Under the pieces are notes generated by a model. The model saw only the letters and a list, made by a program, of their open reading frames with translations. It ran no database searches and was not told where the DNA came from. Positions 2,238 through 54,525 of a stretch of 64,000 bases of DNA are shown one piece after another; positions within the stretch are counted from its first letter, which is position 1; each line of letters begins with the position of its first letter. A program made the translations under genes and the position numbers. Source of the stretch: an uncultured bacterium (GTDB lineage Bacteria > Pseudomonadota > Alphaproteobacteria > Sphingomonadales > Sphingomonadaceae); contig CALOGB020000012.1 in assembly GCA_942636505.2 (NCBI GenBank), positions 2,657 through 66,656 of the forward strand, written 5' to 3'.

Positions 2238-2245
2238 TCGACGCC

Positions 2246-15002: not shown

Positions 15003-15052
15003 ATCGCCGTACCGTGACCGGTTCGACAAGCCCGCCGTGAAGCGGAAAATCC

Positions 15053-29531: not shown

Positions 29532-30767
29532 TCAGGCGGCGAGTGACGCTAGTATCAGCGTATCATTCGCGTATCGTAGATGAGCCGACGTGTGCTCCGA
29601 CAACGCCTCGAAGAAGGTATCAACCTCCCGGATCGCAGCCACCAGATAGTCGGGCGAGAGGTGTTCGTAATTGCGCGCGGTAGTATCCTGCGCGGCATGT
29701 CCGGCCAATGCCATGCGCTGCTCCTTGGGCACACCGCGTCTTGCGAGCCAGGTCAGCATTGTATGGCGTAGCGTTTTCGGCGTCGCGCCAACAATTCCCG
29801 CCTCGGCACATACGGCGTTCCAGACAGTCTTTACCGATCGAGTCTCTCGCTCGAAATGCGTTGGTCCGCCAGGGATCTGGTTACGCTCCGCGATCGGCAC
29901 GCGATACTTGATCAGCTTGCCCACGATTCCCGCAACCCAAGGGCGAACATGGCGTGCGATCGGCAGCACGGGCCGCCGCTTGCGCAAGTGAATTTTGCCG
30001 GCGGCGTTAAGGTTGATGAGATTGTTCTCGAGATCAACGTTCTGGTCGGTTAACTCGAGCACAGCCTCTGGACGACCAGCGGTTCCTAATTCGATGACGA
30101 TAAACGCGATCAGGTGTTCGCGTTCCGGCTTCCCCAAGCACGCATTCATGATCGCGGCGATCTCCTGCAAGGTCAGTACGCGGTCCCGCGCCGGTGCCTT
30201 TTGCTGTGGAGGGACATCGGCGATGAACGGCGCGTGTTCGAGCTTCTGGTTTTTCCAAGCCCAGTTCAGGGCACCCCGCAAAGCCGCTAGGTCCCGACTG
30301 ACCGTATGCCCGCCTGCGCCGGCCTTCGCTCGCGCGGTTCGAAACCGTGCCTGAAGGGGCGGCGTGAGATCCGCGACGGTAACCGCTGCGCCCAATCGCC
30401 CTGCCCTTCGTTCGCCATCAAAGAAGTCCATCCAGTGTACAACGGAAACCGCGTATCTGTCAGGCGCGGCGAGCGTCGACACATGATACTTCAGCCAGTC
30501 CGCCATAAGGTCTTCGACAAGCGCCTCATCGCGTCTTTGACGCACTGGGCGGCTGTGCTCCAGGTAATGAGCGGCTAACGCGTCTTTGGCTGCTGTAGGC
30601 GGCCGATCTGCCTCACCTCCTCGAACAGTCGTAGCCTTGCGCCTCGTGACGTCGCCTCCATTTCCGGGACGTTTTTCGAGCCAGCAGATGTTCCACGTTG
30701 CAGTGTCCGGTCGTTGCCAGAGCCAGAATTGTCCAAGTTGTTGTCGTTTGCCGTCGCGCTTACGCAT
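29532..30767 (-). CDS. tyrosine-type site-specific integrase
   Basis: C-terminal catalytic pattern: R (AGRPEAV region), TLRHTMLTWLARRG (HxxR) and LAGHAAQDTTARNYEH (catalytic Tyr). It ends 33 nt from tRNA-Ala. Confidence 0.9.
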   Translation of the reverse strand: MRKRDGKRQQLGQFWLWQRPDTATWNICWLEKRPGNGGDVTRRKATTVRGGEADRPPTAAKDALAAHYLEHSRPVRQRRDEALVEDLMADWLKYHVSTLAAPDRYAVSVVHWMDFFDGERRAGRLGAAVTVADLTPPLQARFRTARAKAGAGGHTVSRDLAALRGALNWAWKNQKLEHAPFIADVPPQQKAPARDRVLTLQEIAAIMNACLGKPEREHLIAFIVIELGTAGRPEAVLELTDQNVDLENNLINLNAAGKIHLRKRRPVLPIARHVRPWVAGIVGKLIKYRVPIAERNQIPGGPTHFERETRSVKTVWNAVCAEAGIVGATPKTLRHTMLTWLARRGVPKEQRMALAGHAAQDTTARNYEHLSPDYLVAAIREVDTFFEALSEHTSAHLRYANDTLILASLAA

Positions 30768-32695: not shown

Positions 32696-33931
32696 TCACG
32701 CGACGCTAGAACGAACCCGGTCTGCGCGGAGCATCACCCTCTTGGCCAGGGCTTCACCAACCGCGGTATCCGAAGGCATCGTGTCGATAGCATCCATGAG
32801 TGATGTCGTGACCCGCGCGATCCTTTGGCGAAGCAAGGGATAGGTGATCCCTGCGCTCTCTGCGAATGCCTTCCATGTATCTTTGGTAACCTCGTCGATC
32901 GTGCCCGCGCTTCCCAGCCTCATGGCCATGCGTGATGCTAACGCAGGCCAATGGATCGTCGAGAGCAGATCATAGAACGGTGCCAGCCGTGGTCCACGGT
33001 CGTCTAGCACGAACGAGAAGTTCTTGCCGTGGGCGTCTGCGTTGCCGATCACGAGATTGAAGATCGCCACGTCGACCAGGTTCAACACCGCCGGCGCCGG
33101 TACCCTGACATAGGCCCGCGTCAGCGCGAACAGGTCGCGGAACGCTGGACCACCTTCTGCTGCGTACTTGCGCTCCGGTGGTACGCCCAGCGCCTGACAC
33201 GCGTCCTCCTGATGAAGCCGCGACGTGATGCCGCCCTCGGTGGTTACACGATCATAGCGTTCGACGAGCAGATACGGATGCCGCTCCGCCTGTCGTGCTT
33301 CGGCATGTGCCGTCGGCAGACCAACGCGGGCGGCGAGCGTCATGCACCACGCCTCGTTCTGAACCGAACCGGCAAAGCGTTCGATCTCCGGCTTGATGAT
33401 GTGGGTGGTCGGCTGCCCTGGTGCGGGGAGTGCCGGGTTTCCGTCGACCAGCACAACGGGAATCTTGGCCTGGGCACCAGCGAGGCTCAGGCGCAGTCCA
33501 TCCTCACCGGCAAGTAAGGGGCGGCCGGGTAACCTCGTGAGAATGTCGGCCAGCGCGCCATCGCTTAGAACGCGCGGTGCGCCAGTCGTCGAACGTTCCG
33601 GTGGATCCTGCCCTGGCGGCAATAGCATGATCGCGCCTGCGACATCGCCACCGAGGCGATCCAGCAAGGCGAAGTCATTGGCAACCGAAACACCCAATGC
33701 CGCCGCGGCGCCTTGTCGCTGGTCGGCTTCGGGCAACAATCCCCCGAAGAACGGACGGCAGGCCGCGCGGTTGAAGGGCTCATCGCGTAGCGGCAGGGAG
33801 CGGGACAACGGCCTGTTGTCGCTGCTTACCCACGCGGGGTCATATCCAAAGCTCAGATCGCCACTACGATCCTGAGTCAGCAGGCCGACGACGGCCTGGT
33901 CCCACCACACGACAAGCGCGCGGTCGGTCAA
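32696..33931 (-). CDS. hipA: type II toxin-antitoxin system HipA family kinase toxin
   Basis: SLAGAQAKIPV, HQEDACQALG, IGNADAHGKNFSF and APFYDLLST. Confidence 0.9.
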   Translation of the reverse strand: MTDRALVVWWDQAVVGLLTQDRSGDLSFGYDPAWVSSDNRPLSRSLPLRDEPFNRAACRPFFGGLLPEADQRQGAAAALGVSVANDFALLDRLGGDVAGAIMLLPPGQDPPERSTTGAPRVLSDGALADILTRLPGRPLLAGEDGLRLSLAGAQAKIPVVLVDGNPALPAPGQPTTHIIKPEIERFAGSVQNEAWCMTLAARVGLPTAHAEARQAERHPYLLVERYDRVTTEGGITSRLHQEDACQALGVPPERKYAAEGGPAFRDLFALTRAYVRVPAPAVLNLVDVAIFNLVIGNADAHGKNFSFVLDDRGPRLAPFYDLLSTIHWPALASRMAMRLGSAGTIDEVTKDTWKAFAESAGITYPLLRQRIARVTTSLMDAIDTMPSDTAVGEALAKRVMLRADRVRSSVA

Positions 33932-34336: not shown

Positions 34337-34666
34337 TCAACTAATGGGAAGGTGGCGATCCAGTCGGGCATGCAGCAGCGTTATCAACGCCGGGTCCATG
34401 AACGCATAGTCGTCCGGTATGTCGAGACAGATCAGGCGCTTGCCGTTGAGCGACGATCGAAACCGTTGCTGCACCTTCCGGCGGTGGATTTTCTCCATCA
34501 CGACGATGACATCGGCCCACCTGACCAGCTCCGAGGTCAGCGGGTTCTCTGCATCGTTGTTCGTACCAGCGGAGTCGACCTCGAGATCGGGACGCGACGC
34601 GAAGACCTGTTCGGCGGTCGGACTACGGAGGCGGTTTTGGCTGCACACGAACAGAATCTTCTTCAC
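34337..34666 (-). CDS. small low-molecular-weight phosphatase-like protein (Cys-X5-Arg)
   Basis: VKKILFVCSQNRLRSPTAE (CX5R P-loop) and DIPDDY. GTG 34666 is preceded by GAGG at a 9-nt spacing. Length is about 109 aa. Confidence 0.7.
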   Translation of the reverse strand: MKKILFVCSQNRLRSPTAEQVFASRPDLEVDSAGTNNDAENPLTSELVRWADVIVVMEKIHRRKVQQRFRSSLNGKRLICLDIPDDYAFMDPALITLLHARLDRHLPIS

Positions 34667-34832
34667 ACTACCGCACCTCAAGGCCGACTTGTTTTCGATC
34701 GCGACCGCGTATCGGTCGGCGTCGTCGTGGCACGCATCATACGTAGATGGCCACTGGTCGCCCAGCGGGAGGACATGAGGGAGGCCGCACGCCGCGGGAT
34801 CGTTGTCGAGCCTCACAGGGAGCCACGCAGCA

Positions 34833-35754
34833 ATGAAACTCGACCAGATCGCCCACGAATCGCCGCCGAGATCCAGGCCGACGCAAAGGCTGTCGAGAAC
34901 GCGGCGGACGCAAAGATGCCGGGTCTCATACCCGGACCGTTCGGGATGGCGATCGCGATGGTCGATTGCTCGTTGATCCAGGCCGGATCACCAGAAACCT
35001 TCCCGATCCAGAGCATCTCGAAGGTCTTTGCGCTCAGCCTGGCGCTGGAGAAACTTGGCGATACGGTGTTCGAACGGGTGGGGCGCGAGCCCTCGGGCGA
35101 TTCGTTCAATTCGGTGCTCGATCTTGAGCGAACCCAAGGCATTCCGCGCAACCCGTTCATCAACGCCGGCGCGCTGGTCGTCGTCGACATGCTGGTCGAG
35201 CAGTTTGGCGATCGTGCGCGAAATGCCGTGCTCGATCTCGTGAAGGGCGGGATCAAGGATGCTAGGTCGAAAGCGGAAGTGATGCTCGACCCGGAGGTAT
35301 TGAACGAGGGCGGCGACCTCAACCGCGCGATGCTTCATTTTATGATGCATCACGACAATGTGTGCTCGCCGATCGACGCGATCATGGACGCTTATGCGCG
35401 GCAGTGCGCGGTCAGCGTGGATTGCGTCGGGCTTGCACAGGCCGGATGCTACTTGGCCGATACGCGCATCGCTGCCAACGCTGCGAACGATCGCGCCAAG
35501 CGCATGCGAACGACGCTCGCGCTAATGATGACGTGCGGCCATTACGACGGTTCGGGCGACTCCGCCGTCCGTGTCGGGCTTCCCGCCAAGAGCGGCGTCG
35601 GGGGCGGCATCCTGGCGATCGCGCCCGGCATTGCCTCGATCGCAGTGTGGTCGCCCAATCTGGATCAGCACGGCATTCGATTCTCGGCGTGTGTGCGCTC
35701 GAGATGCTCAACGCGCGCACCGGCTGGTCCGTCTTTGGTCCACCGGTCGACTGA
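34833..35754 (+). pseudogene. glsA: glutaminase A, frameshifted
   Basis: FPIQSISKVF, GREPSGDSFNS, GIPRNPFINAGAL and GLPAKSGVGGGILA are in one frame. The expected C-terminus SILGVCALEMLNARTGWSVF continues in another frame after about 35675. A possible second shift lies near 34859. Confidence 0.7.
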
Positions 35755-35825
35755 AAGGAGCGCCTCCGCACGCGCTTGCCGCCGAAGCGAACCTAGCACA
35801 TGATCCCTGAAAAGGGGGAACGCGC

Positions 35826-37851: not shown

Positions 37852-38151
37852 ATGCTCGATAACTTACCTCAATCGTCCGCGTCGCTAAGGCTCTATCAGG
37901 TGAGCTACGAGACATGGATCCCTCCGGTGATCGTGGCAGCTAGGGCGCCCCAGCGTGCTGCGGCGATCGCAACTTACGGCCGGCCCCCGGTGCCGGGTTC
38001 ACCGGGGACTATCGTTATCGACGTCACAGATGAGTTCGTGGCGCTTTCACCGATAGCTGCATCGCATGTTCAAGCCCTGACCTCGGGAAGGGTAGAAGGC
38101 GTGGTATCTTATGACGCGGAGGATGGCTGGGCATACGACGCCCTGCGCTAA
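37852..38151 (+). CDS. hypothetical protein
   Basis: ATG 37852 is preceded by GAAGG. 99 aa with no recognisable motif. Confidence 0.35.
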   Translation: MLDNLPQSSASLRLYQVSYETWIPPVIVAARAPQRAAAIATYGRPPVPGSPGTIVIDVTDEFVALSPIAASHVQALTSGRVEGVVSYDAEDGWAYDALR

Positions 38152-39084
38152 ATCAACGCTCGATCGAGGTGGCTGACGGCTGAATACCGCGGTGGTGATG
38201 TGCCAGGTTCCAGTCTTTGTGATGCTTGGCGCACTCCAAGCCACCCTCCGGCAAACGACGGCTTGGTATAGAAATCGCGAAAGTGAGGCATGGCGGTTGG
38301 TTGCACCACGCAACCGGCCGCCGTCCGAGGCAGTCCGCGCCAACGAGAGGCTCGGAAATGGTGGGGCAAGGCTCGCAAGACAGCGCAAACGCTCACTCCG
38401 CAACTATGCGGCTACCACCACCGGTTATGCACTTTTCAGACCTCAAATCTAATTAGGTCCACTTCGTACCAAAATGAACAAAAAATAACCCCGTTATTAT
38501 ATATCTACTAAGTAAGATATATACCGGTTCCAGCGCGACTTTCACGATCAAGCTCGAACCCAGCGCAAGCCGAGAATCTCTGATGCGCGTACGCGAGCGC
38601 ACACGCCTAGCGCGCATACGCGAGCACGCGCACGAGACCTGAAATCCCGCGGCGATCAGCGCGAAGCGCGGCAATGCGGTTTAGGCTCGTTGATCCCCCG
38701 CCGATCGTGCTCAGGTCGGCCTATGCCGTGCCACCGCATTGCTGGCACCGAAGCGCGCATAGTGGGGCTTACGAAGGCTTCTTCGCCGGCAGAGGGTCGA
38801 CGGAAGGTACCAAGGGCTCGTTTAAGGCGCTTCCGGGCCCGCCAGGACGCCAAAAACTATAAATAGCTAGTCTCGCCCACCTCGCGCTTAGATTGCTGCT
38901 GTAGGGGCCTTAGCAGCGGGTCGCCACGCTTCGTTACCATCATAAGCCCATTCCGTTCGGCCTTGGCGTTGACGTTGGCGACGCAACGATGATCGACCTG
39001 CCCGGCCCTTGGGCCTCGCCTGCGCGCCTAACCGTCTTGGTTAAAGTTCAACGCGATTGGGTTGAGGCAAACTTGGTTCGGCGT

Positions 39085-39390
39085 TCAATGCGCTAGAATG
39101 ACGAATTTTGTGAATAGCACGCCGAAAGAGAACAGCGCGATCCCGGCAGCCATGCCTAACCCGGAAAGGATCCACGGGGATGTCGCCCATCCATCGAGCC
39201 TGTTCAAAGCCGCTAGATGTTGTTCCAGGGATTTCTCCATGATCTGCTGATTGAGTAGTTCAATTCGCTTGGCACGATTTTGCGACTCGTTGTCCTCTGC
39301 GAGCCGAGTTGTCAGCGTCGTCGGCTCGGATCGGGTCATGGATCGCTTCTCCATCTCGCGCTGCGTGTAATTGGAAGGTTGGCGACTCAT
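39085..39390 (-). CDS. small coiled-coil protein with C-terminal transmembrane anchor (cassette gene 3)
   Basis: Charged helical N-terminal half, then WILSGLGMAAGIALFSFGVLFTKFVIL. ATGA overlap with the upstream gene's stop. Confidence 0.45.
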   Translation of the reverse strand: MSRQPSNYTQREMEKRSMTRSEPTTLTTRLAEDNESQNRAKRIELLNQQIMEKSLEQHLAALNRLDGWATSPWILSGLGMAAGIALFSFGVLFTKFVILAH

Positions 39391-39767
39391 GTGATCCGCC
39401 ATGTCGCCAGAGGATGGCCTGTCACCGGTAATTCGACGATGCGAGCCGATGGGAGAATGCCGTGCCGTTGCGCACTCTCTAGCAGGCCACGCATGTTCGC
39501 ACGGCCAACGGGATTGGCGCTGTGCAGCACGACCAGCCTGAGTTGATCGAATCCTGTCGGCCGATCCATCGCTTCGTCTATCAGCAGATGCATACAGTGC
39601 TGCCCGCTCGGCAATGCGAAGCCAGCACCATCGCTACCGAGGTCGTGATCGAACGCTATTATCGTCGGTCGATACGAGCGGATTGCGGCTAGGAAAGCAG
39701 TTGCATCACGAACAACGTGCCAGTCCCAGGTGGGCGGAGACCTCTCGTCATCGAGAAATATTCGCAT
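39387..39767 (-). CDS. receiver-fold protein resembling the phage 'cyclic-phosphate processing receiver' (cREC) domain (cassette gene 2)
   Basis: MRIFLDDERSPPTWDWHVVRDA...IIAFDHDLGSDG...LVVLHSANPVGRANM matches my recollection of the cREC pattern (M-x-I-x-LDD-x-R...W...DHDLG...HS-x-NP-x-G). Confidence 0.45.
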   Translation of the reverse strand: MRIFLDDERSPPTWDWHVVRDATAFLAAIRSYRPTIIAFDHDLGSDGAGFALPSGQHCMHLLIDEAMDRPTGFDQLRLVVLHSANPVGRANMRGLLESAQRHGILPSARIVELPVTGHPLATWRIT

Positions 39768-39769
39768 AA

Positions 39770-39985
39770 TCAGATCTCGTTCTCGTATATCGCCTCCAGT
39801 TCTCGCGCGAGATCAGGGTGATTATTTTCAAAATAGTAAGAGATAACCCTGAGGAAGAACTTCCACCTGTGTGCGTATCCTTCTCTATGTTGAGCTATGC
39901 CAATCATCCCTAAAACCGGACTTAATACTAAAGCTGAAAAAGTCGCCTTACCCGACATGAACAAAACCCCATACCGCCATTGCAT
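39770..39985 (-). CDS. small hydrophobic-N-terminus protein (cassette gene 1)
   Basis: Contains FSALVLSPVLGMIGIA. Its stop is 2 nt before the next start. Low GC. Confidence 0.35.
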   Translation of the reverse strand: MQWRYGVLFMSGKATFSALVLSPVLGMIGIAQHREGYAHRWKFFLRVISYYFENNHPDLARELEAIYENEI

Positions 39986-40353
39986 TGCTGCGAGTCGGAC
40001 CTACCAATACATGGCCTATCTCCCGATGTCGCCCAAAGAAATATCATTCTGTTAGTCAACGGGTTAGAATCGCATAGTCAACCACACACATGCACTTGAT
40101 GGTTTTACTTATTAATAACGAACTGTAAGCCAGAAGATGACGTCTACACGGTCCATTGTGCTTCAACCGTGACCGGTTTTCCAAATCTTTTTGGCACGAA
40201 GTCCTAAAGGCAATCAATACCAAATGACCCGGGTACTGCCTATCGCCGGCGTCATAATCGAGCCCAAGCCATCCGCGGCTGACCAAGTTGTGGTAGACTT
40301 GGTTACCTTTTTCGCGCCTTATCGCCGCAAGTATCGCGAGGCGGGGGCGGAAA

Positions 40354-43300
40354 TTGGCTACAGTACCGAGTATCGAGCAGGACGAGCCGACCGTTTCGGT
40401 GTTCCAGAGCGACCTTCCCATAGATGAGAAGCTGGATCGCGCGCGGACGGAGCTCCTCGATCTCTCGGCGAGAAACCGGCTGCTCAATATGCCACGCGCG
40501 GCGAAAGGTGCGAAGGCGGTCGAAGTCGTCGACGAGGTCAGCAGCGAGATTTTCCGCATGCTCGTCGTTGAGACGCGCCCCTTCTCGTTCCTCGCGGGCA
40601 AAGCGGCATCTGCCGGTGAGCAAGCCAGCGAAGACGTGCCCGCGGAGGAGTCGGACGAGATTGCCGATCTCGCGCAACCCGAGGATGACGTTGCCGATGA
40701 ACGCGGTGTTTTTTCGCGCCACGTCGATACCCGTCTCCAGACCCGACTAACGCCAAAGGGCCTGCAAAAGCGCCTGCTCGAGCTCTACTTCGACGCGCGC
40801 ACGCTGGAGGAGGAGCAGGGCGTCAACATCCTCTATCTAACGCTTGGTGCGCTCAAGTGGATCGACCCTAACAATGCCGCGAACATCCGGTTCGCACCCC
40901 TGGTACTCGTACCCGTGCAACTCGAGCGCGGCAATGCGGGCGAGAAGTTCAAGCTGAGGATGCGGCAGGAGGACTACGCGTCCAACCTGTCGCTGGAGGC
41001 TTTTCTCGACCGCGCGCACGGCATCCGGCTGCCGACGTTTGAGGGCGGTGAGGATTTCGATCCGGTCGCCTATTTCAAGGACGTCGCCGAGGCTGTGTCG
41101 TCGAAACCGGGCTGGGAGGTTCAGCCCGACGTCGTCGTGCTCGGCTTCTTCTCGTTCGCCAAGTTCCTGATGTACCGCGATCTCGATCCGCAGACCTGGC
41201 CGAACGGCGGCAAGATCACCGAGCGTGCGCTCGTCCGCGGGCTGCTGGCCGACGGGTTCGAGGGCAGCGCGGGCATGATCCCCGAAGATGCCAATATCGA
41301 TCCGTTCATCCCGCCGTCCGAGATGCTCCACATCGTCGACGCCGACAGCTCGCAGGCCTTGGCTGTGCACGAGGTGCGTGGCGGTCGCGACATGGTCATC
41401 CAGGGGCCGCCGGGAACGGGAAAGAGCCAGACGATCGCCAACATCATCGCGTCCGCGATCGCCGACGGAAAGACCGTGCTGTTTGTCGCGGAGAAGATGG
41501 CCGCACTCGAAGTGGTCAAACGACGGCTCGACGCGACCGGCGTCGGCGATGCGTGTCTCGAGCTCCACAGCAACAAGGCCAACAAGCGCGCGGTGCTCGA
41601 AGAACTGCGCCGGACGTGGGAGCTCGGCGCCCCCAAGCATCAGGATGCCGGGAGCCTGCATGCCCGCCTAACGATCGCGCGCGATAGCCTGAACGGTCAC
41701 GTCCAGCGGATGCACGCGCCGCATCCGGCATCCGGGCTGACCCCCTATCAGGTCATCGGCCAGTTGAGCCGGCTACGGCTGGACGGCGAGAAGCCCGGCG
41801 ATCTGACGCTGGTCGAGCCGGAAACTTGGTCGGTCGATGATTTCGCCGAGCGTCACAATGTGATCGGCGAGCTTGCCGAACGGATCACGCTTATCGGTCG
41901 TCCCGGCGAGCACGCATGGCGCGGGGTCGGCCTGTCCTCGATCCTGCCGACCGAGGTTGAGCGGCTGGAGGAACGGCTCTCGGTAGTGATCGAGAAGCTC
42001 GCCGCACTCGACGGGGCGCAGAGCAGTCTTGCGACCCGTCTCGAACTGCCGCCGATGGCGTCGCTCGGCGACATCGGAGTCCTCGTCGTGCTGGCGAACC
42101 GGGTTGCACAGGCGCCCGCGATCGAGGGCACTGCACTCGCGGACACGGTTTGGGAGCATCGCTTCGACGAGATCGACCGGCTGCTCGTAACCGGCCAGCG
42201 CCACGCCCATCTCCGTGGCCATCTCGTATCGTCTGTAACCGAGAGCGGGTGGACGACCGACCTGTCGGAAGCGATCGCCGCCCTGCGCTCGCTGCCGTCG
42301 ACGTTCGCGCTCGCGGATTTCGAACAGGTCGGTGCGCTGGCGGCAGCGCTGCCCCGATTGCAAGCCGAAGCGGGAGCGTTGGCGCGGACGATCGGCCGTG
42401 ATGCGCCCAATTCAATCGACGAAGCCCGTAAGCTTGCCGCGATCGGTGAGCGCGTTGCCAATGCACCTCATGCCGACGCGGATGCCTTTGCCTCCGACGT
42501 CTGGAACTCGGGAGTCGAACGCGCCGCCGATGTCGTCGATGCGGTTGCCGCGTACGAGGACGCGGTCGCGGGGACGACCGGAAAGCTGACCGATGCAGCC
42601 TGGGATATGGAGCTGACGGCTGCGCGGGTCACGCTCGCCTCGCACGGCAGCGGGTTCATGAAGATGTTCAGCGGAGAGTGGCGACGTACGAACCGGCTCG
42701 TCCGATCCGTGCTGACGTCGCCGACAACACCGCTCGACGAGACTCTGCTTTTGCTGGACGCGCTCGCGAAAGGGCAGGCCGCGAAGCGGACGATCGAGCA
42801 GGAGAATGATTTTGCGCGCTCCGCCTTCGGGGCGGAATGGCGCGGCGAGCGCTCGACGTCGGCGCCGCTGTTGAGCGTGGTCGAGTGGATGCGCTCGCTC
42901 CGCGGGCTAGGCGCCGAACCCCGCATCATCGCCGCGCGCCGGCCCGACCGCAGCGAGATCAGCACGCGCGCTTCACGAACGACGGCGTTGATCGAGCAGT
43001 TGGCACCTTCACTGTCAGCTCTGTGGTCCAGCTTGGGTGACGTGCAGGCGCTGGCGTTCGGCGATGTGTCGGCAGCGGACCGCGCCGATCTCGAAGCCTT
43101 GATGACCGTCGTGACACGGCTGCATGCCGCCGACACCGCCAGTTCGGCCGTGCTGGTTTCCGCGCCTGCTAATCTCAACGATCGCCGCCAGATTCTGGAC
43201 GATCTCGCCGAGCTTCAGCGCAAGGATGCAGCGATCGCCGAACTGGCAGAGGTTGGCACCGCGGCGTTCGGAACGGCATGGCGTGGGACTTCGTCCGAAT

Positions 43301-45960
43301 GGAACGCTTTGCGCGCCACCGCCGACTGGATCCGGGCCAACGGCGACATACGCCTTCTGATCAGCAGGATCGACGACCGTGCGGAGCCTGCTGCGGATGC
43401 TGCTTTGGTCGAAGCGAATGCCAAGGCCCTCCTCGATGATCTGACTGCGATCGGCGAGCAGCTTCGCCTCGATCTGGGCGTCGCGCTCGGGCGCGAGACG
43501 TTCGCCGCCACGCCGCTTGTCGATCTGCGCACGCATCTGGAGCGTTGGCACGAGTCAGGCGAGCGCCTGACGCAGTGGACGGCATATCGTGACCGCGCGG
43601 AGCGGACGTCGAAGCTCGGCTGTGACGATGTCGTCAAGCGGCTCGCCGACGGTCGCCTTGGAACGGACGGCGCCGTGCCCGCCTTCGAGATGGCCTATTA
43701 CGAGGCGGTCTATGCCGACCAGATCAGGGCCGATCCCGACCTCGGCACGTTCGACGGCACGTTGCATGGCCGGCTGGCGCGCGAGTTCGCCGACATGGAC
43801 CGCCAGCGAATCGCGACCGCGAGCTTCGAGGTCGTGAAGGCGCATCACCAGGCAGTCCCGGCACGGGATGGCGGCGCAGTCGGTCCGCTCGGCGTGCTGC
43901 GCGCAGAGATCGCCCGCAAGCGCGGTCACATGCCGATCCGTCGCCTCATGGAGAAAGCCGCCCCCGCGGTGCAGGCGTTGAAGCCGGTATTCATGATGAG
44001 CCCCCTGTCCGTGGCGCAGTTCCTGGCACCCGGCCTGTTCGACTTCGATCTGCTGGTCATGGACGAAGCGAGCCAAATCCAGCCGGTCGATGCGCTTGGC
44101 GCGGTCGCGCGGGCCAAGCAGGTCGTCGTTGTCGGCGACCCGAAGCAGCTTCCGCCCACCGCCTTCTTCTCAAAAATGACCGGCGGCGGCGCGGACGATG
44201 ACGACGATGCAGGCACCCGCGTGACCGACATCGAAAGCATTCTCGGCCTGTTCACAGCCCGCGGCCTGCCGATGCGGATGCTGCGCTGGCATTACCGCAG
44301 CAAGCACCAGTCGCTGATCGCGGTCAGCAACCGCCAGTTCTACGAGAACAAGCTGTTCATCGTCCCCAGTCCCTACACCGCCGAGGCGGGCATGGGGCTG
44401 CGCTTCCATCGCATTCCGCAGGGCGTGTTCGATGCCGGCGCCACGCGGACCAACATGGTCGAGGCGAAGGTCGTGGCGCAGGCGATCGTCGCGCACGCGC
44501 GCGACCATCCCGAACTGTCGCTCGGCGTCGCCGCCTTCTCCGCCGCCCAGCGCCGCGCGATCATGGACCAGCTCGAAATCCTTCGTCGCGGCCTCCCAGC
44601 CGCGGTCGAGACGTTCTTCCAGATGCATCACTCCGAGCCGTTCTTCGTCAAGAACCTCGAAAACGTGCAGGGCGACGAGCGCGACGTGATCTTCATTTCG
44701 GTCGGCTACGGACCGACCGTCCCGGGCGGTCGCGTGCTGATGAGGTTCGGGCCGCTCGGCATGGACGGCGGCGAACGGCGATTGAACGTCCTCATCAGCC
44801 GCGCCAAGCAGCGGTGCGAAGTGTTTGCCTCGATGTCGGACGAGGACATCGACCCGGATTTCGCTGGCACCCGCAAGGGGATCCTCGCCTTCAAGCTGTT
44901 CCTGCACTTCGCGCGCACCGGCAAGATGACCATGGCAGAGAGCACCGGCCGCGATCACGACAGCGTGTTCGAGGAGCAGGTCGCCAAGGCGCTGCAAGCC
45001 AGGGGCTATCAGGTCCACCGGCAGGTCGGCCTTGCGGGCTTCTTCATCGATCTCGCGGTGTCCGATGCAGACCGACCCGGCCGCTATCTCATCGGCATCG
45101 AGTGCGACGGCGCATCGTATCACGATGCACGTTCGGCCCGCGATCGCGACCGACTTCGCCAGTCGGTCCTGGAGAGTCATGGCTGGACCATCCACCGTAT
45201 CTGGAGCACCGACTGGTTCCAGCGACCCAAGGAACAGATCGATCTCGTCATTGCGCGGATCGAGGCGGCCAAGGCCGAGCACGATTCCCAGGCCGCCGGC
45301 GTAAAGGCCACGCGTGCCGTGAACGTCGAGATTACCACCCTCGAACGCGAAGGCTTCACCGAGGTCGGCTTGGCCGCGCCCGACGGGGAACCTGCGAACG
45401 GCCTTTACGAAGAAGCCGAAATTACCAGACCTAGGCATCTGCTGGGCGAGCTTCACGACACGCCGCGCGGCGCCTTGTCCGCGCTGGCAGAAGAAGTCGT
45501 GCGGATCGAAGGCCCTGTTCACGCGTGCGAGGTCGTCAACCGTATCCGCGACGCCTGGGGACTGAAGCGGGCCGGCGCCCGCATTCAGGAAGCGGTAGAG
45601 GCAGCGATCGCGGTTTCGGTTCGCGAAGGACGTATAACGGACAAGGACGATTTTCTCGACCTACCGGGCCGGACGCCAAAGGTACGAGACCGCAGTGCGG
45701 TTCGCTCAGCCTCGTTACGGAAGTCCGATACGCTACCGCCGGCTGAGCTCGAGATCGCGATCCTCGACGTCGTGCGGATCAACTACGGCGCGACCGACGA
45801 TCAGGTCATGCAAGCAGCCGCCCGCGCCGTAGGCTTCAAATCGACCAGTAGCCAACTGCGCGACCTGCTGGCGGACGTGATAGCCGCCGCAATCAAGGGC
45901 AACCGACTTGCACGGCAAAGTGGCATGCTTGTGCTCGGCTCTTCGGAGGCGAGGACTTGA
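40354..45960 (+). CDS. giant Upf1-like SF1 helicase with DUF4011-type N-terminus, DUF559/MTES_1575-like REase domain and DUF3320-like C-terminus
   Basis: - N-terminus: LLDLSARNRLLN...GVNILYLTLGALKW...PLVLVPVQLER.
- Walker A: GPPGTGKSQ (41404-41427).
- A helical insert of about 640 aa containing the paralogous segments AFGAEWRG...EWMRSL and AFGTAWRG...DWIRAN.
- VMDEASQ, VVGDPKQLPPT, WHYRSKHQSLI, VQGDERDVIF and RLNVLISRAK.
- REase domain: FFIDLAV...IGIECDGASYHD...HGWTIHRIWSTDW.
- TTG start. Confidence 0.88.
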   Translation: MATVPSIEQDEPTVSVFQSDLPIDEKLDRARTELLDLSARNRLLNMPRAAKGAKAVEVVDEVSSEIFRMLVVETRPFSFLAGKAASAGEQASEDVPAEESDEIADLAQPEDDVADERGVFSRHVDTRLQTRLTPKGLQKRLLELYFDARTLEEEQGVNILYLTLGALKWIDPNNAANIRFAPLVLVPVQLERGNAGEKFKLRMRQEDYASNLSLEAFLDRAHGIRLPTFEGGEDFDPVAYFKDVAEAVSSKPGWEVQPDVVVLGFFSFAKFLMYRDLDPQTWPNGGKITERALVRGLLADGFEGSAGMIPEDANIDPFIPPSEMLHIVDADSSQALAVHEVRGGRDMVIQGPPGTGKSQTIANIIASAIADGKTVLFVAEKMAALEVVKRRLDATGVGDACLELHSNKANKRAVLEELRRTWELGAPKHQDAGSLHARLTIARDSLNGHVQRMHAPHPASGLTPYQVIGQLSRLRLDGEKPGDLTLVEPETWSVDDFAERHNVIGELAERITLIGRPGEHAWRGVGLSSILPTEVERLEERLSVVIEKLAALDGAQSSLATRLELPPMASLGDIGVLVVLANRVAQAPAIEGTALADTVWEHRFDEIDRLLVTGQRHAHLRGHLVSSVTESGWTTDLSEAIAALRSLPSTFALADFEQVGALAAALPRLQAEAGALARTIGRDAPNSIDEARKLAAIGERVANAPHADADAFASDVWNSGVERAADVVDAVAAYEDAVAGTTGKLTDAAWDMELTAARVTLASHGSGFMKMFSGEWRRTNRLVRSVLTSPTTPLDETLLLLDALAKGQAAKRTIEQENDFARSAFGAEWRGERSTSAPLLSVVEWMRSLRGLGAEPRIIAARRPDRSEISTRASRTTALIEQLAPSLSALWSSLGDVQALAFGDVSAADRADLEALMTVVTRLHAADTASSAVLVSAPANLNDRRQILDDLAELQRKDAAIAELAEVGTAAFGTAWRGTSSEWNALRATADWIRANGDIRLLISRIDDRAEPAADAALVEANAKALLDDLTAIGEQLRLDLGVALGRETFAATPLVDLRTHLERWHESGERLTQWTAYRDRAERTSKLGCDDVVKRLADGRLGTDGAVPAFEMAYYEAVYADQIRADPDLGTFDGTLHGRLAREFADMDRQRIATASFEVVKAHHQAVPARDGGAVGPLGVLRAEIARKRGHMPIRRLMEKAAPAVQALKPVFMMSPLSVAQFLAPGLFDFDLLVMDEASQIQPVDALGAVARAKQVVVVGDPKQLPPTAFFSKMTGGGADDDDDAGTRVTDIESILGLFTARGLPMRMLRWHYRSKHQSLIAVSNRQFYENKLFIVPSPYTAEAGMGLRFHRIPQGVFDAGATRTNMVEAKVVAQAIVAHARDHPELSLGVAAFSAAQRRAIMDQLEILRRGLPAAVETFFQMHHSEPFFVKNLENVQGDERDVIFISVGYGPTVPGGRVLMRFGPLGMDGGERRLNVLISRAKQRCEVFASMSDEDIDPDFAGTRKGILAFKLFLHFARTGKMTMAESTGRDHDSVFEEQVAKALQARGYQVHRQVGLAGFFIDLAVSDADRPGRYLIGIECDGASYHDARSARDRDRLRQSVLESHGWTIHRIWSTDWFQRPKEQIDLVIARIEAAKAEHDSQAAGVKATRAVNVEITTLEREGFTEVGLAAPDGEPANGLYEEAEITRPRHLLGELHDTPRGALSALAEEVVRIEGPVHACEVVNRIRDAWGLKRAGARIQEAVEAAIAVSVREGRITDKDDFLDLPGRTPKVRDRSAVRSASLRKSDTLPPAELEIAILDVVRINYGATDDQVMQAAARAVGFKSTSSQLRDLLADVIAAAIKGNRLARQSGMLVLGSSEART

Positions 45961-45990: not shown

Positions 45991-48900
45991 ATGGGGGATA
46001 AGACTGGCAATTTCGCATTCCTGGCAGCCCACAGCCCGCAGCTGACCAAGCTGGGTCAACTCGCCGAACGGTATTTTTCGGATGACCCCCCCGCCGCGCT
46101 GGTCAAGTTGCGACAGTTTGCGGAAATCACGGCGAAGACCGTTGCTGCGCGGCATGCCCTGCTTCCCACACAGACAGTGTCGTTCGATGACGTTCTGAGG
46201 ACGCTGCGAGCCCGGTCGATCCTGCCGCGTGAAATCGCCGATCTGTTCTATCACCTGAAGCGCGCTGGGAATGTCGCTGCTCACGAGGATACGGGCAGCG
46301 CGGCCGATGTGCTGACGTCGCTAAAGATTGCTCGTGAGATCGGCATCTGGTTTCACCGGAGTTACGAAGGTCACCCCGATTTTAAACCGGGTCCGTTCGT
46401 CCCGCCGGTGCCGCCGACCGATTTCGGCAGGGCGCTCGCCGACGAACTCGCGCAGTTGAAGAGAACCATCGCTACGAGCGCGGATAGCGAAGCGAAGGCT
46501 GTCCTTGCCGCGCAGGACGCCGAACAAAGACGGCGGGTAAGCGAAAATCGGGCGGAGCAGAACGCGCGGGACAAGGTGTTCTGGGAGAGCTACGCAGCCG
46601 AGACCGAAGCGGCGTTGCGTTCCGCAGAAGCCGCTCTGTCGGGCATGCAGTCCCAAGCCGCTGCGATCCCGCAACATCAGCTCGATATGCTGACGAACCT
46701 AGCCGCCGACGGTGCGAAGCGGGTGGAACTGGATGAGCGGACAACGCGCGTTCTGATCGACGACCGACTCCGGGCCGCTGGATGGACTGTCGATAGTGTG
46801 GGCCTCCGGCACGCGCTTGGGGCCAGGCCAGATTATGTCACGCCGATCGCGATCGCGGAGTGGCCGACCAAGAGCGGTCCCGTTGACTATGCCCTGTTCA
46901 TCGAGGGCCGCTGTGTCGGCGTGATCGAGGCTAAGCGCCAGAGCAGCGACGTGCCCGGCCGGATCGGTCAAGCTAAGCGCTACGCCCGCGACATCACGCT
47001 GACGCCGGACGAGCTGCCCGTCGGTGGCCCTTGGACCCAGAACGAAGACCGTTTTCGCATACCCTTCGTCTTCGCCACCAACGGCCGGGCTTATGTGAAG
47101 CAGCTGGCGACCAAGTCCGGCACTTGGTTCTGGGATGCCCGTGTCCCCGGCGATCCGCCGCGTGCGCTTGTCGAGTGGTTCTCGCCCCGCGATCTCAGCG
47201 AGCGACTGGAGCAGGACATTGCCGCCGAGCCCAGCATCGTCGCCGATCGCGAACTTGGCGTTACCGGACTGCGCCCCTATCAGCGCGATGCGATCACCGC
47301 GGTCGAGAGCGCCATTGCCCGCGGGCAACGCCAGATCCTTCTCGCAATGGCGACCGGCACCGGTAAAACCCGCCTCGCTATCGCGCTGATGTACGAACTG
47401 CTCCGCACTCAGCGCTTTCGCCGCATCCTGTTCCTTGTCGATCGCAATGCGCTCGGTCGCCAGACGCTCGACGCGATGAGCACCACCGACACCAGCGGCT
47501 TCTACAAGTTCGATCAGGTCTTCCCCGTAGCCGACATGACGCGCAAATTCCCCGAGGCGACCGACCGCGTCCAGGTCGCCACCGTGCAGGCCATGATCCA
47601 CCGCGTCTTCGACAATCCCGGCGCCGACCGACCCACCCCCGGCACCTACGACCTCGTGATCGTCGACGAAGCGCACCGCGGCTACACGCTCGATGCCGAG
47701 CTGCGAGAAGACGATCTTGGCTTTCGCAACCTCGACGATTACCTGTCCGCCTATCGCCGCGTGCTCGACTATTTCGACGCCACCAAGGTCGCGCTGACCG
47801 CCACCCCGGCGCTCCACACCCGTGAGATCTTCGGCGCGCCGGTGTTCCGCTATGGCTATCGTCAGGCGGTGATCGACGGCTATCTGATCGATCACCGCCC
47901 GCCGCGCCGCATCACCACCGCGCTCAGCCAGACCGGGATCAGCTTCGAACAAGGCGAGGAGGTCACGATCTTCGACCCGCGCACCGGCGAGGTCGACCTG
48001 TTCGATCTTGAGGACCAGGTCGATTTCGAGATCGCGCAGTTCAACAAGAAGGTTCACACCCGCGCCTTCAACCGCGCGGTCGCCGAAGCCATCGCCGCCG
48101 AATGCCCGCCCGACCAGCCCGGGAAGACGCTGCTCTTCGCCGCGCGGGACGACCATGCCGACATCCTCGTCGACGAACTCCGTGCCGCGCTTACGGCGGA
48201 ATACGGACCGCAACCGCACGACCTCGTCGAGAAGATCACCGGCTCGATCGACAAGCCGCTCGACCGCATCAAGGCGTTCAAGAACGATCCGCGCCCCAAA
48301 TACGTCGTCACCGTCGACCTTCTTACGACCGGCATCGACGTCCCCGCGATCACCAACCTGGTGTTCGTCCGCCGCGTCAACAGCCGCATCCTCTACGACC
48401 AGATGATCGGCCGCGCGACGCGCCGCTGCGACGAGATCGGCAAGGAGTATTTCCGTATCTTCGACGCGGTCGACATTTACGCCAACCTTCAGGACGTCAC
48501 CGACATGCGCCCGGTCGTGGTCAATCCCGGCCTGTCCTTCGGAACGCTGGTTGGCGACATCGAGCGCGCCACCACTGACGAGGACCGCGCCTTCGTCCGC
48601 GACCAGATCGTCGTCAAACTCCGCCAGCGAATCAAATACATCAACGACGACCGCCGCGACGCCCTCGAACCTGTCGTCGGCCCTCTCGGCGACCTTGCCG
48701 ACCGCCTCAAGGACGCGCCCGCCGCCGACACCATCGCGCTCTTCCGCCAGCACCCGTCGCTCGCCACCGTGCTCGATGCCGCCAACCCGGCCCGCACCGG
48801 TGACGGCATCTACATCTCCGAGCACGACGACGAACTCGTCTCGATCGAAGATGATTTCGGCGAAAAGGCGACCCCCGGCGATTATATCGAGAGCTTCGAG

Positions 48901-49380
48901 GCGTATGTCCGCGACAACATGAACGCGGTCCCCGCAATGATCGCCGCCACCCAGCGCCCGCGCGAGCTGACCCGCAAGGAGCTAAAGGAACTCGCCATCC
49001 TTCTAGACGCCAAGGGCTTCTCCGAGGCGAGACTCCGCCGCGCCTATGGCAGCGCGCGCAACGCCGACATCGCTGCGCATATCATTGGTTTCGTCCGCCA
49101 GGCAGCGCTGGGCGACCCGCTCGTCGCGTATGAAACGCGCGTCGACAACGGCGTCCAGCGCATCCTCGCCAGTCGTACCTGGACAGCCAAGCAGAAGCAG
49201 TGGCTCGCCCGCATCGGTCGCGTCCTGCGCGCGCAGCCGGTCGGCGATCCCGAGATACTCTCGGACCCCTTATTTGCACAACATGGCGGCTTCGCAGTGG
49301 TCGACCGGGAGTTCGATTCCGGGCTAGGGGAGGTGCTCAAAGACCTGAACGCCGCGATCTGGGATACCCGCGCGGCATGA
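45991..49380 (+). CDS. hsdR: type I restriction enzyme R subunit (COG4096-type) with DUF4145-like N-terminal domain
   Basis: - N-terminus: FAEITAKTVAA...HLKRAGNVAAHE.
- Nuclease motif: VDYALFIEGRCVGVIEAKR.
- Helicase motifs: LRPYQRDAI, MATGTGKT, VIVDEAHRG and LTATP.
- It starts 30 nt after the helicase stop. Confidence 0.9.
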   Translation: MGDKTGNFAFLAAHSPQLTKLGQLAERYFSDDPPAALVKLRQFAEITAKTVAARHALLPTQTVSFDDVLRTLRARSILPREIADLFYHLKRAGNVAAHEDTGSAADVLTSLKIAREIGIWFHRSYEGHPDFKPGPFVPPVPPTDFGRALADELAQLKRTIATSADSEAKAVLAAQDAEQRRRVSENRAEQNARDKVFWESYAAETEAALRSAEAALSGMQSQAAAIPQHQLDMLTNLAADGAKRVELDERTTRVLIDDRLRAAGWTVDSVGLRHALGARPDYVTPIAIAEWPTKSGPVDYALFIEGRCVGVIEAKRQSSDVPGRIGQAKRYARDITLTPDELPVGGPWTQNEDRFRIPFVFATNGRAYVKQLATKSGTWFWDARVPGDPPRALVEWFSPRDLSERLEQDIAAEPSIVADRELGVTGLRPYQRDAITAVESAIARGQRQILLAMATGTGKTRLAIALMYELLRTQRFRRILFLVDRNALGRQTLDAMSTTDTSGFYKFDQVFPVADMTRKFPEATDRVQVATVQAMIHRVFDNPGADRPTPGTYDLVIVDEAHRGYTLDAELREDDLGFRNLDDYLSAYRRVLDYFDATKVALTATPALHTREIFGAPVFRYGYRQAVIDGYLIDHRPPRRITTALSQTGISFEQGEEVTIFDPRTGEVDLFDLEDQVDFEIAQFNKKVHTRAFNRAVAEAIAAECPPDQPGKTLLFAARDDHADILVDELRAALTAEYGPQPHDLVEKITGSIDKPLDRIKAFKNDPRPKYVVTVDLLTTGIDVPAITNLVFVRRVNSRILYDQMIGRATRRCDEIGKEYFRIFDAVDIYANLQDVTDMRPVVVNPGLSFGTLVGDIERATTDEDRAFVRDQIVVKLRQRIKYINDDRRDALEPVVGPLGDLADRLKDAPAADTIALFRQHPSLATVLDAANPARTGDGIYISEHDDELVSIEDDFGEKATPGDYIESFEAYVRDNMNAVPAMIAATQRPRELTRKELKELAILLDAKGFSEARLRRAYGSARNADIAAHIIGFVRQAALGDPLVAYETRVDNGVQRILASRTWTAKQKQWLARIGRVLRAQPVGDPEILSDPLFAQHGGFAVVDREFDSGLGEVLKDLNAAIWDTRAA

Positions 49381-49393
49381 TGAAAGACTTCGC

Positions 49394-50872
49394 ATGAATC
49401 CCTCCGCCGATCTGGTGAACAAGCTGTGGCGCCTGTGCACGCTGCTCCGCAAGGATGGCGTGACCTACCAGCAATATGTCACCGAGCTTACCTATCTGCT
49501 CTTCCTCAAGATGGCATCCGAGCAGAAGGACGAGAGCCGCATCCCCGAGCAGTATCGCTGGAGCGCGCTGAAATCCACGAACGAGACCGAGGTGTTGACG
49601 CGCTATCGCCAAGCGCTGATTGATCTCGGCGACGGCGCCAAGATCTCCGACCGCTCGATCGTCGCGATCTTCCAGAACGCTGCGACGATCGTGCGCGAGC
49701 CCGTCAATCTGCGCAAGCTGATCGATGCGATCGATGGCCTGCACTGGTATAGCGAGGAGCGCGATGCGTTCGGCGATGCCTATGAGGGCCTGCTCCAGAA
49801 GATGGCGGAGGAAACTAAGCGCGGCGCCGGCCAGTATTTCACCCCGCGCGTGCTCATCGACGTGATCGTCCACCTGATGCAGCCCGAGCCGGGCGAGGTC
49901 ATCCAGGATCCAGCGGCGGGCACTGGCGGCTTCCTGATCGCCGCCGACCGCTACATGCGCGCGACCACGGACGATTATTTCACGCTTTCGCCCAAGCAGC
50001 AGGCATTCCAGCTGAACCAGGCACTGCGCGGCGTCGAGAACGTGCCCGACACCTTTCGCCTGCTCCAGATGAACCTGCATTTGCATAACATCGACCCCGA
50101 TCACCTCGATCTGGCCGATACGCTAAGCCCGCGCGGCGCGGCACCGAAGTACAAGAATGCAGACCTGATCCTGACCAACCCGCCGTTCGGCCCGGCCGGC
50201 GGCCCCCCGACGCGCGACGACCTGACGATTACCGATAGCGTCTCGTCCTATCAGTTCCCGTTCGTCGAACACGTCATCCGCTCGCTCAAACTCGGCGGTC
50301 GCGCCGCGGTAGTGGTGCCTGACAACGTCCTATTCGACGATGGCAAGGGCAAGCTCCTGCGCCAGCGTTTAATGAGCTGGTGCAACCTCCACACCATTCT
50401 GCGCTTGCCGGTCGGCATCTTCTACGCGCAGGGCGTGAAGACCAATGTCCTCTTTTTCACCCGCGCTGACGACGAAGCCCCGCTCAAAGACGCGACCGAA
50501 GCCGTCTGGATCTACGACGCCCGCGCCAACATGCCGAATTATGGCAAGACCAATCCGTTCAAGGCGTCTGATCTTGGCGATTTTGTCGCAGCGTTTGGTG
50601 ACGATCCCGATGGCGGTTTGGAGCGTACCGACGAGGGCGAGACTGGGCGATTCCGTTGCTTCAAGCGTGAAGAGATCACGGCGCGGGGCGACAATCTTGA
50701 TATTGGCTGGCTCAAGGATACCAGCGGGGATCCTGAGGATGGTCTGGAAACGCCAGACGAGATCTCTGCGGCTATCGAATTGCATTTGGCAAACGCGATG
50801 GTCGAGGTTCGCGCACTGATTGACGAGTTAGACGATGGTGCAACTGAACCACTTCTGGCGTCCGCGGAATGA
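49394..50872 (+). CDS. hsdM: type I R-M N6-adenine DNA methyltransferase subunit
   Basis: GQYFTPR, DPAAGTGGFL and LILTNPPFG. Confidence 0.93.
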   Translation: MNPSADLVNKLWRLCTLLRKDGVTYQQYVTELTYLLFLKMASEQKDESRIPEQYRWSALKSTNETEVLTRYRQALIDLGDGAKISDRSIVAIFQNAATIVREPVNLRKLIDAIDGLHWYSEERDAFGDAYEGLLQKMAEETKRGAGQYFTPRVLIDVIVHLMQPEPGEVIQDPAAGTGGFLIAADRYMRATTDDYFTLSPKQQAFQLNQALRGVENVPDTFRLLQMNLHLHNIDPDHLDLADTLSPRGAAPKYKNADLILTNPPFGPAGGPPTRDDLTITDSVSSYQFPFVEHVIRSLKLGGRAAVVVPDNVLFDDGKGKLLRQRLMSWCNLHTILRLPVGIFYAQGVKTNVLFFTRADDEAPLKDATEAVWIYDARANMPNYGKTNPFKASDLGDFVAAFGDDPDGGLERTDEGETGRFRCFKREEITARGDNLDIGWLKDTSGDPEDGLETPDEISAAIELHLANAMVEVRALIDELDDGATEPLLASAE

Positions 50873-54524: not shown

Positions 54525-54525
54525 C

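Follow-up and report, generated by a model that had tools for sequence, protein, structure and literature searches.

Near the middle of a 64,000-nt stretch of DNA from an uncultured bacterium of the Sphingomonadaceae (the whole stretch is called the window here), three short minus-strand genes form an operon in which a gene for a cREC-family protein is flanked by two genes that we call A and C. Comparison with related loci places this operon as a lineage-restricted unit of Sphingomonas-like bacteria, in which it appears to occupy one variable slot of an integrase-bearing chromosomal defense island. Judged from the gene arrangements at those loci, the constant unit is the cREC–C pair, and the first position is an exchangeable cargo slot, of which A–cREC–C is one recurrent allele. 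The cREC domain family itself is already known, through its predicted function only; what is new is a partner set of two small orphan proteins, of which at least one is predicted to be anchored in the membrane, together with a genomic behavior that is chromosomal, lineage-restricted, and slot-like.

The middle gene encodes a member of the cREC family

The cREC family was defined by comparative genomics, and its members are predicted to act as phosphoesterases on RNA 2′,3′-cyclic phosphates or cyclic ADP-ribose derivatives (PMC7824862, PMC9503650), an activity described as experimentally uncharacterised (PMC9503650). Their published partners are RNA ligases, KptA, sirtuin, Nudix, 2H, and WYL proteins, and polynucleotide kinase (PMC7824862, PMC9503650). 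The domain is widespread, being found in up to 18% of jumbo phages (PMC9503650).

A first-pass annotation of the window, made by reading the DNA alone, had proposed that the middle gene of the operon (39387..39767, minus strand, 126 amino acids) encodes a protein with a cREC receiver-like fold, and had quoted in support the sequences MRIFLDDERSPPTWDW, DHDLG, and HSANPVG. All three are present in the middle open reading frame (ORF), and profile matches, predicted structure, and conserved residues agreed in bearing out the proposal. The Pfam search that the annotation had recommended returned a significant match to cREC_REC (PF20274), which covered positions 1–87 of the 88 in the profile with an E value of 5.3e-19 and a score of 69.1 bits (gathering cutoff, 27), and the protein also matched phrog_1479, a family of unknown function (E 4.4e-22). 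An AlphaFold2 (AF2) model calculated from 19 homologues had a predicted local distance difference test score (pLDDT) of 95 and a predicted template-modeling score (pTM) of 0.88, with strands at residues 2–5, 16–19, 36–39, 78–81, and 109–112 and helices in between. A Foldseek search of predicted viral structures with this model retrieved cREC proteins of Aeromonas, Pectobacterium, and Klebsiella phages, with template-modeling (TM) scores of 0.63–0.68 and E values of ~1e-6. Across 43 aligned, diverse cREC sequences, eleven residues show no or almost no variation (D6, D7, R9, D40, H41, D42, L43, G44, H82, S83, and N85, in window numbering), and the window protein retains every one of them. Because the profile match, the predicted fold, and the full set of invariant residues concur, we consider its assignment to the cREC family secure. 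The C-terminal extension (approximately residues 98–126) is specific to the clade.

A search by sequence found no solved structure of a cREC relative. The best Foldseek matches in the PDB were the receiver domains of NtrX, GacS D1, PorX, and CheY4 (TM score ~0.5, E 1e-3 or worse), with which the window protein has in common an acidic pocket located where strands 1 and 3 end. It nonetheless differs from canonical receivers in several respects: identity to them is only 10–22%, a cREC loop takes the place of helix 1, the histidine-containing DHDLG and HSxN motifs are distinctive, and the cREC family is predicted to be enzymatic and not to serve as a phospho-switch. Nor does it have a cognate histidine kinase, since none was found in the operon or in ~25 related loci.

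Three tightly coupled genes under purifying selection

The first gene, A, occupies 39770..39958 (minus strand, 62 amino acids), and the third, C, occupies 39085..39390 (minus strand, 101 amino acids when read from the ATG at 39390; the mechanically called ORF, 39085–39402, would encode 105). The first-pass annotation had described three minus-strand ORFs separated by a 2-nt gap and an ATGA overlap, which proved exact upon reading the sequence: the TGA stop codon of A (39772–39770) is followed by 'tt' and then by the cREC ATG at 39767, and the TGA of cREC (39389–39387) overlaps the ATG of C (39390–39388). This junction spacing upholds the view of the genes as a tightly coupled operon. Also exact was the reported low GC content (26 of 60 nucleotides at 39781–39840), and over entire genes the GC fractions of A, cREC, and C are 0.44, 0.58, and 0.54, respectively, compared with 0.635 for the window and 0.65 for the neighboring helicase gene.

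All three genes bear a signature of coding constraint. When copies from related contigs were compared with those of the window by the Nei–Gojobori method (NG86), the ratio of nonsynonymous to synonymous divergence (dN/dS) was 0.06–0.27 for A (with dS up to 0.69), 0.13–0.39 for cREC (dS up to 1.3), and 0.12–0.42 for C (dS up to 0.9). The purifying selection on A, cREC, and C therefore indicates that all three are protein-coding and constrained.

The cREC–C pair persists while the upstream gene changes

Besides the window, the survey covered 27 contig loci of the Sphingomonas clade, of which one was retrieved twice; they were collected by looking up exact proteins and by scanning genomes and metagenomes, and seven reference proteins were mapped onto them. 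Homologues of cREC at 56–96% identity fell into 36 clusters, assigned to Sphingomonas wherever a name was given. The cREC–C pair was present in ~20 contigs, all Sphingomonas-like and all with the pair in the same island slot, and the gene in front of it varied. A GmrSD gene preceded cREC and C in L001, L002, L003, L004, L012, L057, L058, L061, L069, and L070, and A preceded them in eight contigs (the window, L005, L006 [=L011], L008, L009, L010, L062, and L067). An RPA gene preceded the pair in L007; in L060 it was followed by a truncated cREC gene and then by C, and in L066 by C without cREC. In L064, C also stood without cREC, preceded by 1.3 kb of repeat-containing DNA, and in L056 an A-like segment was fused to cREC (A-like::cREC) and C was missing. 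Thus, as far as these arrangements indicate, cREC and C are each able to persist without the other.

The GmrSD proteins of the slot are full-length (585 amino acids, with both GmrSD_N and GmrSD_C) and match the PADLOC candidate HEC-05 with an E value of 1.7e-177; in about nine contigs a gene of this type lies 8–60 nt upstream of the cREC–C pair. The RPA proteins match PF10134 (1e-26 to 1e-43). A is therefore one of at least three interchangeable slot occupants, the others being a HEC-05-type GmrSD nuclease and an RPA replication initiator. In blastn comparisons with GmrSD- and RPA-type loci, homology to the window ended at 40226 and resumed within or at the start of cREC (39668 or 39767), from which it follows that ~0.56 kb of the window replaces ~2.3 kb elsewhere. 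Wherever enough flanking DNA was available, the slot was bordered by a divergent DUF4011 helicase-nuclease gene on one side and by a convergent 99-amino-acid ORF followed by a HAD gene on the other, with the exception of L001, in which hsdR stood beside the slot in place of the helicase gene.

These results change how the locus is best described. The first-pass annotation had presented a three-gene cassette and had held that homologues of the three genes never occurring together would speak against it. The survey of homologue neighborhoods that it had called for found A, cREC, and C together in eight contigs, so the trio does recur; the cassette is nevertheless not fixed, since the slot also takes GmrSD or RPA and C also occurs without cREC. 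Synonymous divergence shows, moreover, recombination between cREC and C: compared with L008, the window has a dS of 0.25 for cREC and 0.93 for C, and compared with L057, 0.94 for cREC and 0.42 for C.

Two of the atypical loci held further features of their own. In L064, two tandem copies of ~300 nt fill the slot (1660–2270) and contain two ORFs that share the starting peptide MIAEAETARSPRPGIDCL, which points to a repeat element or to a remnant that was duplicated. In L056, a minus-strand gene (2092–3063) beside a helix-turn-helix (HTH) gene and an integrase gene encodes a 323-amino-acid protein with an H-V-H motif ('PHVHGLV') and no Pfam record; read by eye, it could be the HUH-type Rep of a small integrative element.

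C is a predicted tail-anchored membrane protein

An alignment of 21 homologues gave C a consistent layout: a variable N terminus, an amphipathic helix (approximately residues 38–67), an SPW motif, a transmembrane segment (approximately residues 72–98), and a tail of three residues. The amphipathic helix is rich in invariant positions (RAKRIxLLNQQIxEKSLEQHLAALNRLDGW), and the hydrophobic C-terminal segment reaches a 19-residue Kyte–Doolittle mean of 2.06 (residues 82–100). Because the conserved layout ends in a hydrophobic segment plus three residues, we classify C as a tail-anchored membrane protein by prediction, and the C-terminal anchor that the first-pass annotation had given it is sustained by both the hydrophobicity and the alignment. 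With respect to the start codon, a stop/start overlap (ATGA or 1 nt) is kept in most loci in which both genes are complete, and two C homologues lack the internal methionine favored by many gene callers, which supports initiation at the ATG within the ATGA.

C sits 3′ of cREC in every Sphingomonas-clade cREC locus except the fusion locus L056, and its distribution is narrow. Its 54 database clusters, all at ≥66% identity, come from Sphingomonas or from unnamed metagenome contigs, and a profile search of 1.84e9 cluster representatives returned its own two clusters only. C matched nothing in Pfam, NCBIfam, PHROGs, or PADLOC; no relatives were found among IMG/VR viral contigs or PLSDB plasmids; and a scan of all ORFs of 70 loci with a hidden Markov model of C found none outside the clade.

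Gene A and its link to cREC

The mechanically called ORF of A extends to 39985, which would give a protein of 71 amino acids. Relatives favor a shorter form: the codon at 39958 is ATG, TTG, or GTG in homologues, the database homologues of A (P0092/P0093) begin at the position of the 39958 ATG, and in L067 a stop codon lies between the upstream ATG and the equivalent of the 39958 start. In addition, nucleotide identity to L008–L010 is 87% without indels within A and drops to 69% with an indel just upstream of 39958. From these comparisons, A is most likely a 62-amino-acid protein that starts at the ATG at 39958.

A protein of this length would have an uncharged hydrophobic segment (residues 5–23), a basic middle, and an acidic tail. 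A was found in only 4 clusters among 5.8 billion proteins, all of them encoded directly upstream of a cREC gene, and it had no match in Pfam, NCBIfam, PHROG, PADLOC, or the PDB. The sole more distant relative is the N-terminal extension of P0028 (30.8 bits; 29% identity over 49 residues without gaps). P0028 is a cREC protein of 182 amino acids that joins, in one reading frame, an A-like segment to its cREC domain. Such a fusion is an argument for physical cooperation of A with cREC, and two features link the genes: the recurrent 2-nt spacing and the one A-like::cREC gene fusion (L056).

Whether A is itself a membrane protein is uncertain, on the strength of its sequence and model. The first-pass annotation had placed two membrane proteins on either side of cREC, which holds for C and is doubtful for A: the Kyte–Doolittle mean of residues 5–23 (1.62) is borderline, at the usual threshold; an AF2 run with four sequences yielded three helices at low confidence (pLDDT 66); and the extension of P0028 is non-hydrophobic (Kyte–Doolittle 0.51), which argues that a protein with the A fold is not necessarily embedded in a membrane.

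Two other identities for A were considered. An origin of A as a remnant of the GmrSD gene that fills the slot in relatives was rejected, as tblastn of A against GmrSD-type loci returned noise (E >5). That A might be a ribbon-helix-helix regulator, an idea raised by a pattern common to A and the P0028 extension, found no support from Pfam (no match at E values up to 10) or the PDB (no match), and hhalign of A against a hand-entered ribbon-helix-helix set gave a probability of 0.1%.

Upstream of A, the AT-rich left part of the variable slot (39959..40225, GC 0.49) is 68–73% identical, with indels, among A-type loci. Within it, ~115 nt upstream of the A start, lies a 22-nt minus-strand motif (40072..40093, GCATGTGTGTGGTTGACTATGC) that includes TTGACT and is invariant at 19 of its 22 positions in six A-type loci despite diverged flanks, which makes it, from alignment, a candidate promoter or operator. 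A promoter-consensus scan reported no promoter-like site, a terminator scan gave a single terminator-like hairpin no better than those of shuffled controls, and an Rfam scan of the window identified tRNAs only.

The Sphingomonas clade stands apart from other cREC contexts

The window protein resembles other members of PF20274 in its above-threshold match, in its Rec-like alpha/beta fold and DDxR, (S)xDHDLG, and HSxN motifs, and in being encoded in biological-conflict DNA with no histidine-kinase partner. It differs in its company. None of the published partners searched for (RNA ligase, KptA, sirtuin, Nudix, 2H, and WYL) was present in the window island or the Sphingomonas-clade loci. The first-pass annotation had remarked on a cREC protein without an accompanying ligase or kinase, and rightly, in that no ligase or kinase lies in or beside the operon. 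By contrast, distant cREC genes from 41 further bacterial genomes had among their neighbors SIR2/sirtuin (five times) and KptA/Tpt1, WYL/WCX, and calcineurin-like Metallophos proteins (twice each). Because published partners are present in these distant loci and missing here, the Sphingomonas clade appears to have left the usual partner set. Conversely, neither A-like or C-like genes nor a consistent transmembrane neighbor was found beside the distant cREC genes (L013–L055). The window cREC is thus distinguished as a stand-alone chromosomal protein with a C-terminal extension, coupled to an orphan 62-amino-acid protein and an orphan predicted tail-anchored protein, at a slot that alternates with GmrSD or RPA genes.

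The first-pass annotation had also called this cREC 'phage-type', which suits the wider family: relatives at <40% identity occurred in 72 phage records, mostly of large phages, and in 11 plasmids. The label does not suit the Sphingomonas clade, which is chromosomal, sits in an integrase-bearing island, and has a C protein absent from viral contigs and plasmids.

Because it has neither a PADLOC match nor a published cREC partner, the operon belongs, by these comparisons, to no described system. The nearest candidates among type IV restriction systems are those of the HEC-05/GmrSD type in PADLOC, since relatives carry GmrSD upstream of the same cREC–C pair in the same slot, but the window cassette lacks a protein with GmrSD_N (DUF262) and GmrSD_C (His-Me nuclease), and A is not similar to one. 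Pycsar with PycTM, CBASS with transmembrane effectors, and the receiver modules of Detocs are defense systems that combine a sensor with a small transmembrane effector. The window operon is like them in encoding a small nucleotide- or phosphate-handling domain with a small membrane protein in a defense island, but has no cyclase, kinase, sensor–transmembrane fusion, or PADLOC homology, and its C also occurs alone.

A possible role at the membrane and competing explanations

We tentatively favor, while stopping short of calling it probable, a reading in which cREC–C, with or without A, is a conflict-related, membrane-associated cyclic-phosphate phosphoesterase module that lies outside ligase-dependent RNA repair. 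In such a module cREC would be a small Asp/His-based phosphoesterase, as predicted for its family, acting on a ligand that bears a cyclic phosphate; candidates include a 2′,3′-cyclic-phosphate RNA end, an ADP-ribose cyclic phosphate, and a signal of the cyclic ADP-ribose (cADPR) or cyclic-nucleotide type. Through its conserved amphipathic helix, C would keep cREC at the inner membrane, on the cytoplasmic side, and A would modulate or co-anchor cREC. By clearing or sensing cyclic-phosphate molecules, the module would aid the island in its conflict with phages or mobile elements, a role separate from classical ligase-dependent RNA repair. This proposal draws on the intact cREC motifs, the purifying selection, the tight coupling, the pairing of cREC with C in ~20 contigs, and the fusion in L056, as well as on the island context, the candidate defense gene HEC-05 as a slot allele, and the prediction made for the family, with which the SIR2, KptA, WYL, and Metallophos neighbors of distant cREC genes agree.

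Several observations weigh against the proposed module. No signal-generating enzyme (TIR, CD-NTase, or sirtuin), RNase, ligase, or kinase was found in or next to the operon, and A, cREC, and C matched 0 families among the PADLOC-DB v2.0.0 models at E values up to 1. C without cREC in L064 and L066 and cREC without C in L056 indicate that the two are not strictly interdependent, and recombination between their genes argues against tight co-evolution. Guilt by association with a defense island is weak evidence, and a literature search found no experimental work on cREC beyond the two comparative-genomics papers. A bolder version, in which cREC–C, joined optionally by A as a third subunit, is an unrecognized, self-contained immune or counter-immune module whose cREC acts at the membrane on a cyclic-phosphate signal or RNA end, strikes us as unlikely. 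If true, it would provide a first functional handle on the cREC domain, with a partner set of two to three genes and no ligases or NAD+ enzymes.

The low GC content, the defense-island location, and the pairing of a small cytosolic domain with a small transmembrane protein through tight translational coupling would also suit an autonomous abortive-infection system, in which cREC would sense a cyclic-phosphate molecule of infection and release or activate C, C would oligomerize through its amphipathic helix and permeabilize the inner membrane, and A would be a regulator. We doubt this explanation. An intact C alone in L064 and L066 is hard to square with a toxic effector that needs a cognate controller, C has a single transmembrane segment and an external tail of only three residues, the conserved, catalytic-looking D, H, S, and N residues are more what one expects of an enzyme than of a pure sensor, and there is the lack of a PADLOC match. 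We rate as similarly improbable that the genes are cargo of a mobile element (a plasmid, an integrative and conjugative element, or a phage moron), with an anti-defense or establishment role or with no current role. As cargo, cREC would have degraded host immune signals or repaired RNA for the element, as proposed for phage cRECs, and would now be hitch-hiking in a recombination hot spot. Members of the family are carried mostly by phages (the 72 phage records above and PMC9503650), RPA plasmid-replication-initiator alleles lie directly upstream in L007, L060, and L066, truncated or deleted cREC in L060, L064, and L066 signals ongoing decay, GC content is below the host level, and the island contains an integrase. 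However, all three genes are under clear purifying selection at dS values up to ~1, and they occupy one chromosomal slot in many strains, with C and close cREC relatives absent from viral contigs and plasmids.

The slot also invites explanations that tie the operon to other island genes. It might be an accessory or regulatory unit that tunes or licenses the PDC-S37/Hhe-like helicase-nuclease, from which it diverges across a shared control region; nearly all loci with sufficient flanking sequence have the helicase gene next to the operon in divergent orientation, and the region between the two contains the conserved 22-nt motif and a 5′ leader that is very conserved. Yet L001 has GmrSD–cREC–C beside hsdR and no helicase, the slot accepts unrelated cargo (GmrSD and RPA), which fits a hot spot better, and PDC-S37 and Hhe bear single-gene system names in PADLOC-DB. 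PDC-S37 and Hhe probably act as single-gene systems. We hold the accessory role to be quite unlikely. Least credible is a toxin–antitoxin-like addiction module that stabilizes the island, with A as antitoxin or repressor of a cREC toxin or with cREC as antidote to a membrane toxin C. A 62-amino-acid gene 2 nt before a 126-amino-acid gene, as part of a set of small overlapping genes, recalls the type II toxin–antitoxin layout, and HipA is also in the island, but cREC occurs without A in GmrSD- and RPA-type loci, C occurs without cREC, and cREC occurs without C, so co-occurrence is not obligate, and neither a ribbon-helix-helix nor any other antitoxin fold is supported for A (no Pfam or PDB match).

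The locus is less striking than the first-pass annotation implied, because its three genes do not form a fixed unit, the partners of cREC are orphans of narrow distribution, and no specific mechanism is indicated. Its interest lies elsewhere. Most described cREC contexts are large, multi-enzyme RNA-repair or NAD+ neighborhoods in which it is difficult to tell what cREC itself contributes. The operon reduces this context to a minimum of two to three genes and belongs to an alphaproteobacterial lineage that can be cultivated, with natural variants in which A, GmrSD, or RPA lies upstream, cREC is deleted, or A is fused to cREC, which together make it a convenient genetic entry point to cREC. The questions that it opens are what the substrate of cREC is, whether the module acts for or against defense, and why it is tied to a membrane protein. 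Even as inert cargo, the operon would be a record of a recombination hot spot beside a PDC-S37/Hhe-like helicase at which defense candidates are exchanged.

Neighboring genes of the defense island

The stretch from 29423 to 57000 is an apparent integrative defense island. It starts at a tRNA-Ala(cgc) gene (29423–29498), which is followed by a tyrosine integrase gene (29532–30767), a gene for an HTH protein, and a HipA kinase gene (32696–33931). Neither a second copy of the tRNA-Ala 3′ end (attR) nor a long direct repeat that would mark the far boundary was found in the window. A gene at 34352–35803 encodes a 483-amino-acid glutaminase-like protein with ~190 extra N-terminal residues that match nothing; in L004 and L008 only fragments of the gene are called, and it is thus variably decayed in the island.

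Convergent to the operon and ~0.9 kb downstream of C is ORF D (37852..38151, plus strand, 99 amino acids), which had no family match. Homologues occupy the same relative position in L002 (81%), L008/L010 (60%), and L056 (26% over 87 amino acids, 37 bits), the last of these close downstream of the A-like::cREC fusion gene, and ORF D is possibly a fourth associated gene. The ~650 nt downstream of C (38420–39075), which are absent from L004 and unalignable with L002, form a second small variable patch with no convincing ORF. The HAD gene 1.5 kb downstream was considered as a source of a partner phosphatase for cREC and set aside: it encodes a generic HAD-IA hydrolase, a convergent gene intervenes, and there was no evidence of linkage. 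It is 94–97% conserved while cREC varies from 70% to 98%.

On the other side of the slot, and adjoining it in nearly all related loci, the divergent helicase-nuclease gene (40354..45960, plus strand) encodes 1868 amino acids with the architecture DUF4011–superfamily 1 (SF1) helicase–MTES_1575 nuclease–DUF3320, which PADLOC models class as PDC-S37 or Hhe-like. The 165 nt before its start (40190–40353) are almost invariant in six loci in which the adjacent DNA has diverged; they include a stem-loop (40280–40305) and overlap a 78-amino-acid ORF (40191–40427), and may serve the helicase gene as a structured 5′ leader or as an upstream ORF.

Beyond the helicase gene are a complete type I restriction-modification hsdR/M/S set (45991–52197), an IS3-family transposase gene (52795–53730), and a pair of genes for an AlbA_2/Schlafen protein and a GmrSD protein (53751–56460). 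This GmrSD gene (54526–56460) is 15 kb from the operon, and its HEC-05 match is different from and weaker than that of the slot GmrSD. The nearest histidine kinase gene, which has host GC content (57254–59347), lies 17 kb from the operon, beyond the low-GC island genes. Elsewhere in the window, two identical tRNA-Arg(acg) genes stand in tandem at 14926–15129, 127 nt apart from start to start.

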